A stretch of DNA of 64,000 bases from Escherichia coli. Lineage in GTDB: Bacteria > Pseudomonadota > Gammaproteobacteria > Enterobacterales > Enterobacteriaceae. The DNA lies in the NCBI RefSeq assembly GCF_024502345.1, contig NZ_JALDNN010000001.1. The stretch is one strand, 5' to 3'. Position numbers and translations under genes: made by a program. Numbering within the stretch: the first letter of the stretch is position 1; each line of letters begins with the position of its first letter. Shown here one piece after another: positions 49,301 to 51,841 of this stretch. The notes below the pieces were generated by a model. The model saw nothing but the letters and a program-made list of their open reading frames with translations, was not told where the DNA came from and did no database searches.

Positions 49301-49849
49301 ATAGCGGGAAATCATACTGCTGGTAATGATGTTACTACCAATAAAGTAATCATTCTGTCCGGCTGAGACGGATGCTAATGCCTGATATAAATTTGTAAAA
49401 GAGATAATTGTTGCTTTTGGAAATGATTGATGAATTACCTCGTCAGGGGGATAATTTGCTACTCGAGCAATATTTACTGGTTTTGATGAGGTAAGCGGTC
49501 GCATTGAATCGTGAAGGGTGGTGACCAGCGCCGGAAAGGTAATTATCAGTGGTTTGGTTGCAGCAATGTCATCATTAAGAGGCGGCGAAGCAACTAAATG
49601 TGATAACACTATATCGACTTCACCTTCTTCCAGCGCGTCCATTGCTTTTTGATGATCGGCGTATTCCCGGAGTGTTAATTTGATATTTAACGCTCTTTTT
49701 AAAAGATTTAAATAGTCAGCATTAATACCACGAACCCGTTGCTGCGAATCGGTATGCAACAACGTAGCCGTTTGGGACTTATGTACTGCAATCACAAGAT
49801 TTTTTTTGCTCGCTAACCAACGTAATTCCTTGTTGCTCAGACGTAGTGG
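46376..49849 (-). pseudogene. evgS: evgS hybrid sensor kinase missing its first ~40 codons, start codon, signal peptide and promoter
   Basis: Frame matches EvgS from …PLRLSNKELRWLASKKNLVIAVHK… to the native stop at 46376 (periplasmic domains, HisKA/HATPase, receiver, HPt). Homology stops exactly at the IS inverted repeat at 49850; upstream in-frame codons are IS-derived and hit a stop. The ORF-track start is an internal GTG. Confidence 0.85.
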
Positions 49850-50906
49850 GGCTTTGTTGAATAAATCAGATTTCGGGTAAGTCTCCCCCGTAGCGGGTTG
49901 TGTTTTCAGGCAATACGCACGCTTTCAGGCATACCTGCTTTCGTCATTTTGTTCAGCGCTCGTACCAGGGCCATAGCCTCTGCAACCTGACCATCGTAGT
50001 CACGCAGTGTCAGTGAACCCCCGAACAGCTGTTTTACCCGGTACATCGCCGTTTCCGCTATCGAGCGACGGTTGTAATCTGTTGTCCATTTCCACCGCGC
50101 ATTACTCCCGGTCATTCGCTGATTAGCCACTGCACGGTTACGGTCTGCATATTCACCGGGCCAGTAACCCGCACCTTTTCGGGGAGGGATAAGCGCGCTG
50201 ATTTTCTTACGCCGCAGTTCATCGTGACATAGCCGGGTATCGTAAGCGCCATCGGCGGCGGCTGACCTGATTTTCCGGTGGGTTTGCCGGATTAACCCGG
50301 GGAAGGCCTCTGAGTCCGTAACGTTGTTCAGCGACAGGTCAGCGCAGATGATTTCATGTGTTTTACTGTCAACGGCGAGATGCAGCTTACGCCAGATACG
50401 GCGGCGTTCCTGGCCATGCTTTTTGACTTTCCACTCGCCTTCACCGAAGACCTTCAGCCCGGTGGAATCAATTACCAGGTGTGCGATTTCACCCCGGGTG
50501 GGCGTTTTGAAACTGACATTAACCGACTTTGCCCGCCTGCTGACACAGCTGTAATCCGGGCAGCGTAGCGGAACGTTCATCAGAGAAAAAATGGAATCAA
50601 TAAAGCCCTGCGCAGCGCGCAGGGTCAGCCTGAATACGCGTTTAATGACCAGCACAGTCGTGATGGCAAGGTCAGAATAGCGCTGAGGTCTGCCTCGTGA
50701 AGAAGGTGTTGCTGACTCATACCAGGCCTGAATAGCTTCATCATCCAGCCAGAAAGTTATGGAGCCACGGTTGATGAGGGCTTTATTGTAGGTGGGCCAG
50801 TTGGTGATTTTGAACTTTTGCTTTGCCACGGAACGGTCTGCGTTGTCGGGAAGATACGTGATCTGATCCTTCAACTCAGCAAAAGTTCGATTTATTCAAC
50901 AAAGCC
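49850..50906 (-). mobile_element. IS903-like insertion sequence (IS5 family), 1057 bp
   Basis: 18-bp perfect terminal inverted repeats ggctttgttgaataaatc (left) and gatttattcaacaaagcc (right) bracket a single transposase ORF. The 9 bp on either side are unrelated (acgtagtgg vs cggtcaaaa), so there is no target-site duplication. Confidence 0.88.
49906..50874 (-). CDS. IS903-type DDE transposase
   Basis: 322-aa ORF (MKDQITYLPDNADRSVAKQKFKITNW…) with IS5-family catalytic region (…DGAYD…, …YNRRSIAETAMYRVK…); the true start may be internal. Confidence 0.85.
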   Translation of the reverse strand: MKDQITYLPDNADRSVAKQKFKITNWPTYNKALINRGSITFWLDDEAIQAWYESATPSSRGRPQRYSDLAITTVLVIKRVFRLTLRAAQGFIDSIFSLMNVPLRCPDYSCVSRRAKSVNVSFKTPTRGEIAHLVIDSTGLKVFGEGEWKVKKHGQERRRIWRKLHLAVDSKTHEIICADLSLNNVTDSEAFPGLIRQTHRKIRSAAADGAYDTRLCHDELRRKKISALIPPRKGAGYWPGEYADRNRAVANQRMTGSNARWKWTTDYNRRSIAETAMYRVKQLFGGSLTLRDYDGQVAEAMALVRALNKMTKAGMPESVRIA

Positions 50907-51841
50907 CGGTCAAAATGAATCTACCAGGACTGACCCTGTTAGTGCTCGGTGTTGGTGGCTTGCAAATTATGCTTGATAAAGGGCGCGATCTGGATTGGTT
51001 CAACTCGAATACAATAATAATATTAACAGTAGTATCAGTTATTTCTCTGATCTCTTTAGTCATTTGGGAGTCGACCTCAGAGAATCCGATTCTTGATCTC
51101 AGTTTGTTTAAGTCCCGTAATTTCACCATTGGTATTGTGAGTATCACCTGCGCGTATTTATTTTACTCTGGAGCGATCGTCCTTATGCCGCAGTTACTCC
51201 AGGAAACGATGGGGTATAATGCGATATGGGCCGGGCTTGCTTATGCGCCCATCGGCATCATGCCACTATTGATTTCACCTTTGATAGGACGTTATGGCAA
51301 TAAAATAGACATGCGGGTGTTAGTGACATTCAGTTTTTTGATGTATGCGGTTTGCTATTACTGGCGTTCTGTGACATTTATGCCAACGATTGATTTTACA
51401 GGCATCATTTTGCCACAGTTTTTCCAGGGATTCGCCGTTGCCTGTTTCTTTTTACCCTTAACAACGATTTCGTTTTCAGGCTTGCCAGATAATAAATTTG
51501 CCAATGCCTCGAGTATGAGTAATTTTTTTCGTACCTTGTCAGGATCAGTTGGTACGTCGTTGACAATGACGCTGTGGGGACGACGCGAATCGTTACACCA
51601 TAGTCAGTTGACAGCAACCATCGATCAATTTAACCCCGTGTTTAATTCATCGTCACAAATTATGGATAAATACTATGGTTCGCTTTCAGGAGTTCTTAAT
51701 GAAATTAATAATGAAATAACCCAGCAGTCACTTTCTATTTCTGCAAATGAGATTTTCCGTATGGCGGCTATTGCTTTTATCTTACTTACGGTTTTGGTTT
51801 GGTTTGCGAAACCGCCGTTTACAGCGAAAGGCGTTGGGTGA
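50907..51841 (+). pseudogene. emrY: 3' remnant of multidrug efflux MFS permease gene emrY (EmrB/QacA family)
   Basis: Frame open from the IS boundary; translation matches the C-terminal half of EmrB/EmrY-type transporters. No N-terminal half or emrK upstream. Confidence 0.8.

Follow-up and report, generated by a model that had tools for sequence, protein, structure and literature searches.

The primary work on adjacent deletions made by IS903 is reportedly that of Weinert, Derbyshire, Grindley and colleagues. Such deletions are common for this insertion sequence (IS), take place only when both of its ends are present, and rely on replicative (cointegrate) transposition (PMC11708052). We found a similar structure at the evgS-emrY locus of Escherichia coli, in a stretch of 64,000 nucleotides from contig NZ_JALDNN010000001.1 (assembly GCF_024502345.1), here called the window. 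As in the IS903 adjacent deletions, one complete IS is left without a 9-bp target-site duplication, the two joined sites are co-oriented and belong to the same replicon, and a few kb of DNA have been lost. The classical deletions were selected on plasmids and started from a known insertion, whereas the starting insertion in the window is one that we infer.

Acid signaling by EvgS and EvgA, proteins described as nearly universal among sequenced E. coli (PMC5706723), has been lost naturally in other strains. The predicted outcome in the cases described by Roggiani, Yadavalli and Goulian (2017, PMC5706723) is the same as here, that is, no EvgAS-dependent induction by mild acid. Those losses are caused by amino-acid variation in EvgS, which is itself intact, along with a deletion of safA-ydeO in strain MP1, whereas in the window the gene for the regulator has been physically removed.

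A deletion in the window has removed evgA and emrK and truncated both evgS and emrY at the 5' end, with a single copy of IS903B at the junction. We aligned the window to K-12 MG1655 and to E. coli O125ac:H10 strain C 236-04A (NZ_CP109924.1) and found that these genes and gene ends are absent from the native locus, as the original prediction had claimed. Neither evgA nor emrK was found elsewhere in the 64-kb window, as DNA or as protein. In both reference genomes the two flanks of the IS are co-oriented but non-adjacent; in the window they are joined by one copy of the element. The breakpoints are 2,921 bp apart in K-12 (NC_000913.3 2,481,573-2,484,493), and in C 236-04A the distance between these flanks is likewise exactly 2,921 bp, with evgS, evgA, emrK, and emrY intact and no IS. 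Because this near-identical genome keeps the intact segment without an IS, the window represents the derived state. We are highly confident that these genes have really been lost in a deletion bounded by the IS.

Besides evgA and emrK, the lost segment contains their divergent promoter region and the starts of the two truncated genes, nt 1-120 of evgS and nt 1-604 of emrY. A small gene annotated in K-12, evgL, also lies within the lost interval. Alignment to K-12, proposed beforehand as a check, placed the breakpoints at evgS nt 121 and emrY nt 604/605. The last base to the left of the IS is evgS nt 121 (codon 41 position 1) by BLAST against K-12 MG1655, the same base is obtained against C 236-04A, and the codon is exactly the one that had been predicted. 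The first base to the right of the IS is emrY nt 605 (codon 202 position 2) against both genomes, with a 1-base ambiguity in that the C at 50906 can be assigned to the IS or to emrY (emrY nt 604 if counted). The break in emrY had been placed at about codon 205 and has to be moved to codon 202; the remnant has its first in-frame ATG at codon 205, position 50915 (open reading frame [ORF] 50915-51841, 308 aa).

Both remaining genes are 5'-truncated. The evgS remnant has lost its start codon, codons 1-40 (MKFLPYIFLLCCGLWSTISFADEDYIEYRGISSNNRVTLD), and the upstream evgA promoter, from which evgS is transcribed. The hydrophobic start within residues 1-40 is presumably a signal sequence. The remaining frame is open, with one substitution compared to C 236-04A, and residues 2-1139 of the ORF at 46376-49795 (minus strand) match positions 60-1197 of the 1197 positions in the NCBIfam EvgS profile (NF007420). 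The emrY remnant, which lacks the first 201 codons, is matched by two profiles of the EmrB/DHA2 family, NF000391 and TIGR00711, at profile positions ~191-501 only, corresponding to the C-terminal three-fifths.

The element at the junction is a complete copy of IS903B. Its size and its perfect 18-bp terminal inverted repeats agree with the original prediction and with what is expected of IS903B (~1,057 bp, repeats GGCTTTGTTGAATAAATC). The interval originally given for it, 49838-50915, does contain the element and also includes 12 and 9 flanking bases. As expected for the IS5 family, a single DDE transposase ORF fills the element. The ORF matches the NCBIfam profile for IS5 family transposases (NF033579) with 357 bits (cutoff of 140) over positions 1-289 of 289, and the protein has no differences from the copy in strain ET450 (WP_000654812.1), whose name in RefSeq is "IS5-like element IS903B family transposase". 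The same name is given to five of the six copies that we fetched from other strains, the sixth (L002) being a frameshifted "IS5 family transposase"; nucleotide identity between the window element and these six is 98.7-99.9%. One IS903B copy in the complete-genome collection was listed at 100.0% identity. The GC content of the element is 52%, compared to 39-44% in the AT-rich locus around it.

The element lacks the 9-bp target-site duplication that is usual for IS903B. The two 9-bp flanks, ACGTAGTGG and CGGTCAAAA, differ, so the claim that this is not a simple insertion was upheld. We controlled for a wrongly placed boundary by using five simple IS903B insertions in other E. coli strains, with ends identical to those of the window element: OW848980 (in emrK, duplication TCAATAAAG), 23CRST027 (evgS, AAGAGATAA), MB51 (evgS, CGTAGTGGA), EC0900 (evgA, ATTCTAATT), and DETEC-S560 (evgA, TTATAAGTG). 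All five were flanked by perfect 9-bp duplications. The EvgAS/EmrKY locus is likewise inactivated in these strains; unlike the window, they keep the duplication and have lost no DNA. Since copies with the same ends carry perfect duplications, the missing duplication in the window is real and not the result of a mis-set boundary, and it points to a later rearrangement rather than to a different element. A contiguous ancestral sequence with a 9-bp duplication, which would have argued against a deletion, was not what we found; 2,921 bp separate the flanks in the ancestral arrangement. The ancestral sites in C 236-04A (...GTAGTGG/ATCAAG... and ...CTTCAC/CGGTCAAAA...) share no useful microhomology.

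Table 1. Positions of the features of the window.
Feature	Position	Strand	Size or detail	Basis
yfdX-frc-oxc-yfdV-yfdE, intact	39942..46320	+		NCBIfam matches (yfdV, yfdE); collinear with K-12 and C 236-04A
evgS remnant	46376..49849	-	codons 41-1197 and stop	alignments to K-12 and C 236-04A
Left 9-bp flank ACGTAGTGG, evgS DNA	49841..49849		continues into ATCAAGTG in ancestral-type sequence	
IS903B, complete copy (IS5 family, IS903 group)	49850..50906	-	1,057 bp	
Terminal inverted repeat, left end (IRL)	49850..49867		18 bp, GGCTTTGTTGAATAAATC	sequence reading and repeat scan
IS903B transposase ORF, uninterrupted	49906..50874	-	322 aa	NF033579 match
Terminal inverted repeat, right end (IRR)	50889..50906		18 bp, perfect reverse complement of IRL	
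Right 9-bp flank CGGTCAAAA, emrY DNA	50907..50915		preceded by GAGACTTCAC in ancestral-type sequence	
emrY remnant	50907..51841	+	codon 202 position 2 to stop, 935 nt including stop	alignments to K-12 and C 236-04A
TorI-like excisionase	59158..59358		lambdoid prophage	
CI-type repressor	61419..62132		lambdoid prophage	
CII-like activator	62571..62867		lambdoid prophage	

The intact arrangement is preserved in a nearly isogenic strain. When the two flanks were searched separately, one genome was listed at 100.0% identity in both cases, that of C 236-04A, a strain from the feces of a Danish patient with ulcerative colitis (PMC9933702). In a direct alignment, positions 1-49849 plus 50906-59413 of the window (~58 kb) were collinear with this genome. 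There were 15 mismatches over 1-49849 plus 50906-57507 (~56 kb, 99.96-99.98% identity), and identity fell to 99.5% over 57502-59413. Judged from this similarity in sequence, the deletion is recent on the timescale of the clone.

These alignments also bear on whether the deletion could be an artifact of assembly, with two copies of IS903B in fact surrounding an intact evgA-emrK segment that was skipped when the repeat was collapsed. Repeats of 1 kb are classic sites of misjoining, and it is the assembled sequence that was analyzed. However, the contig continues smoothly across the IS with 99.96-99.98% identical, collinear sequence on both sides, and duplication-less deletions bounded by IS903B are real at this locus in the finished genomes of strains ET450 and ET151 (below). 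Even a collapsed assembly would leave evgS and emrY each interrupted. We consider an artifact very improbable.

Loss of the segment is rare in E. coli, and the junction was found in no other genome. The collection used throughout consists of 5,426 complete genomes of E. coli, that of the window strain not being among them; 5,380 (99.2%) have the 2,921-bp segment at ≥80% coverage and 21 have no match to it at all. It is normally a single-copy segment, with a median of one place per genome in other genomes. Neither junction was present in any of the 5,426; two matches that seemed to be full length proved to be IS903B insertions in emrK with all of the genes present. Exact 37-nt strings spanning each of the junctions gave no matches in four scans of GTDB species-representative genomes and JGI metagenome contigs, and an exact look-up of the truncated proteins (the 308-aa 'EmrY and the 1,139-aa EvgS') in an index of 153 billion genes returned nothing recorded. 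A literature search for evgS with IS903 yielded no account of this allele, judging by the text of one paper and by the title and abstract of a Klebsiella plasmid study. Because the segment is present in 99.2% of complete genomes and EvgS/EvgA are nearly universal (PMC5706723), a clean natural evgAS null is uncommon. Separately, 20 matches to the evgA-emrK segment among the complete genomes were on records labeled as plasmids, which may be chromosomal contigs with a wrong label or true copies on plasmids.

The deletion probably arose by the adjacent-deletion route, in which a prior insertion of IS903B is followed by intramolecular replicative transposition. In the first step, ordinary transposition would have placed IS903B at what is now one of the two junctions and made a 9-bp duplication there. 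The resident element would then have attacked a second site ~2.9 kb away on the same chromosome. The chromosome would then retain one IS, with an old flank on one side and a new flank on the other, and the intervening DNA, circularized and lacking a replication origin, would disappear. Either junction could be the older one, and the sequence gives no order. There is precedent for an insertion preceding such an event: in the long-term evolution experiment, all 14 of the 14 duplication-less IS150 deletions that were examined had been preceded by an insertion at that position (PMC11708052).

The final structure could also have been reached by homologous recombination between two copies of the element. 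Two IS903B insertions in the same orientation, one in evgS with duplication ACGTAGTGG and one in emrY with duplication CGGTCAAAA, could have recombined in a RecA-dependent manner, excising 2.9 kb and leaving one hybrid copy. The product would be identical, base for base, to what is in the window: one IS with two different flanks. Some E. coli chromosomes have 20-47 copies of IS903B, the many independent insertions at the locus make double hits conceivable, and recombination between IS copies is listed as a frequent cause of missing duplications (PMC11708052). However, this route needs three events, namely two insertions less than 3 kb apart, both in the same orientation, and then the recombination, and there is no other copy of IS903B in the 64-kb window. 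The adjacent deletion is the most economical explanation because it needs two events rather than three, and we regard recombination between two copies as a possible but distinctly less likely origin. Thus, of the earlier proposal of an IS-mediated adjacent deletion, the deletion itself has held up, and the specific route is a reading of a sequence that two-copy recombination fits equally well.

Several observations weigh against our preferred route, beginning with that identity of the two products. A simple insertion would read ...CAACAAAGCC/ACGTAGTGGATCAAG in evgS and ...TTCACCGGTCAAAA/GGCTTTGTTG in emrY. IS903B with a 9-bp duplication exactly at either junction was found in none of the complete genomes, GTDB representatives, or JGI metagenomes; for the complete genomes, this also counts against the two-copy route, for which neither exact insertion was found. 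The nearest case resembling an intermediate, MB51, is offset by 1 bp and has a more distant background (98.9% identity).

The IS903B in MB51 (fetched locus L005, 6062-7118) is an independent simple insertion 1 bp from the left junction of the window (49849/49850), and its evgS-plus-IS region is 98.9% identical to that of the window. We rejected MB51 as the ancestral intermediate, given that its insertion is 1 bp further in (...GTAGTGGA compared to ...GTAGTGG) and its identity to the window is lower than that of C 236-04A (99.96-99.98%). By a rough estimate, chance would place two of ~13 events in 7.3 kb so near each other only ~3% of the time (~78 pairs x 3/7,300). The proximity suggests a locally preferred target for IS903B. 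Since an ordinary insertion lies 1 bp away, the site in evgS is a good target for IS903B, no matter at which step it was used.

The lack of any detected intermediate in the complete genomes, GTDB representatives, and JGI metagenomes would fit a route that needs none, in which a new copy of IS903B is captured in one step at a double-strand break or deletion intermediate, with no prior insertion and no staggered cut of the target. Such capture at a break has been proposed for an IS5-family element at a 62-kb duplication-less deletion in E. coli C (PMC11708052). However, the mechanism is still only a proposal, both breakpoints in the window abut the exact termini of the IS, and the left breakpoint is 1 bp from the ordinary, transposase-made insertion in MB51, pointing to normal target choice by transposase. 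One-step capture therefore seems highly unlikely, and we continue to favor a prior insertion followed by an adjacent deletion.

Duplication-less deletion by IS903B has occurred at this locus more than once. We searched the region against the complete genomes and fetched six loci. In ET450 (NZ_CP100958.1; fetched locus L003, 4002-5058) and ET151 (NZ_CP100996.1), the same element in the same orientation bounds an independent deletion from oxc to emrY. As in the window, emrY is 5'-truncated, evgAS and emrK are lost, and there is no duplication; the two 9-bp flanks (TGGCAAATG / CGGCTATAT) differ from each other. That deletion is larger, also removing part of oxc, yfdV, yfdE, and all of evgS, and its breakpoints are independent, with an emrY remnant of 1,053 nt rather than the 935 nt in the window. 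Because the ET450/ET151 event is independent of that in the window, we conclude that duplication-less IS903B deletion recurs at the locus. The IS-containing query had 28-29 matching places in each of these two genomes.

We do not consider the evgS-emrY locus to be an established hot spot for IS903B. About 12 genomes have IS903B inside evgS-emrY (7.3 kb), compared to ~7 expected from random placement of the 4,712 chromosomal IS903B-like places, and these counts are clonal and biased by collection. There were no insertions at the locus in a spread sample of 60 IS903B sites. All of the fetched copies at the locus are oriented as in the window. We rejected this as a biological signal; it is an artifact of the search, in which BLAST pieces are joined into a "place" on one strand and inverted copies rank low.

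A broader block that includes the locus has been hit repeatedly. Across the complete genomes there are at least 10 independent IS903B events in frc-oxc-yfdVE-evgSA-emrKY, including two duplication-less deletions and two insertion points that are 1 bp apart. That this block is a recurrent casualty of IS903B in the E. coli lineages in which the element has expanded is a tentative proposal that we think unlikely to hold. Recurrence might be caused by a preference of IS903B for AT-rich DNA (39-44% GC here). The AT-rich frc-emrY region is, we assume, silenced by H-NS. H-NS is reported to influence target choice by IS903 (Swingle et al. 2004, as cited in PMC4999555). Alternatively, loss of EvgAS signaling might be advantageous in some gut or other host-associated niches.

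The strain should lack EvgAS-dependent regulation. From the gene content of the locus, we would expect no EvgA response regulator, no EvgS that can be expressed or exported, and no EmrKY pump. In K-12, EvgA drives emrKY, ydeO, gadE, and mdtEF, and yfdX-frc-oxc-yfdV-yfdE form one operon. Phosphorylated EvgA directly activates the yfdX promoter, and deletion of evgAS from MG1655 abolishes the acid resistance that is induced by mild acid during exponential growth (PMC5706723). In the window, the yfdX-frc-oxc-yfdV-yfdE operon, although intact, would now be without its activator, and its EvgA-dependent induction should be absent. The ydeO/gadE-mediated induction of acid resistance in exponential phase and the induction of drug efflux through emrKY and mdtEF should likewise be absent. 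RpoS-dependent acid resistance in stationary phase would remain.

We found no indication that the remnants are expressed from the IS. A promoter scan detected no promoter-like sites reading outward from the element into evgS' or 'emrY; the single match was inside IS903B and in the direction of the transposase. Residual or fusion expression of the remnants driven by the IS is therefore unsupported.

Some points argue for caution about these predicted phenotypes. Many natural EvgS alleles are unresponsive to acid (PMC5706723), and the ancestral-type allele differs from that of MG1655 at 22 residues, so the extent to which acid sensing was lost is uncertain. In addition, the predicted loss of EvgAS signaling is based on a view of 64 kb of the genome.

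The window strain and C 236-04A differ at several other places. The sucrose permease gene cscB is intact in the window (57382-58629) and is split in C 236-04A by an insertion of ISKpn26 (fetched locus L009, 19750-20945). An IS5-family element has abolished a function in each of the two sister strains, but neither the element nor the function is the same. The ptsP-like gene fryA is a single 831-aa ORF in the window (29858-32353) and is annotated as frameshifted in C 236-04A (fetched locus L010, 32238-34732), a discrepancy that could be real or could stem from an error in sequencing the reference. Since the sequences diverge beyond 59413, prophage content also differs between the two strains. 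Positions 59158-64000 of the window are the end of a lambdoid prophage. Two adjacent short ORFs in it, 60701-61006 and 61046-61387 (minus strand), match the C- and N-terminal parts of phrog_6287 (PHROG, BstA abortive-infection protein), and from the arrangement of these matches the prophage bstA looks split or frameshifted.

Other differences are relative to K-12 or to known arrangements. Downstream of the emrY remnant, dsdA is intact (51949-53277), dsdC is missing, and only the last ~217 nt of dsdX remain; dsdX and dsdC are replaced by genes for a LacI-type regulator (cscR), cscA, cscK, and cscB in 53512-58700. We take this arrangement, csc in place of dsdCX, to be a known variant of the argW-dsdCXA island. 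The K-12 block xapR-xapB-xapA-yfeN (~4.4 kb) is absent at 13759-14164, where there are instead ~400 bp with an FlxA-like ORF in the annotation of C 236-04A. The gap between nupC and pdeA (20067-20078) has no IS186, compared to IS186C in K-12 MG1655.

Based on these comparisons, we conclude that the window holds a previously uncatalogued instance of a textbook event, in which an IS brings about the loss of an accessory locus for regulation and efflux. It illustrates how accessory regulatory circuits are worn away as an IS expands, and it raises no new mechanistic question. If loss of EvgAS signaling does turn out to be advantageous in some niches, the window would be one allele in a series of parallel evolution. 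Together, C 236-04A and the window strain could be a ready-made pair for determining the contribution of EvgAS and EmrKY outside of K-12.

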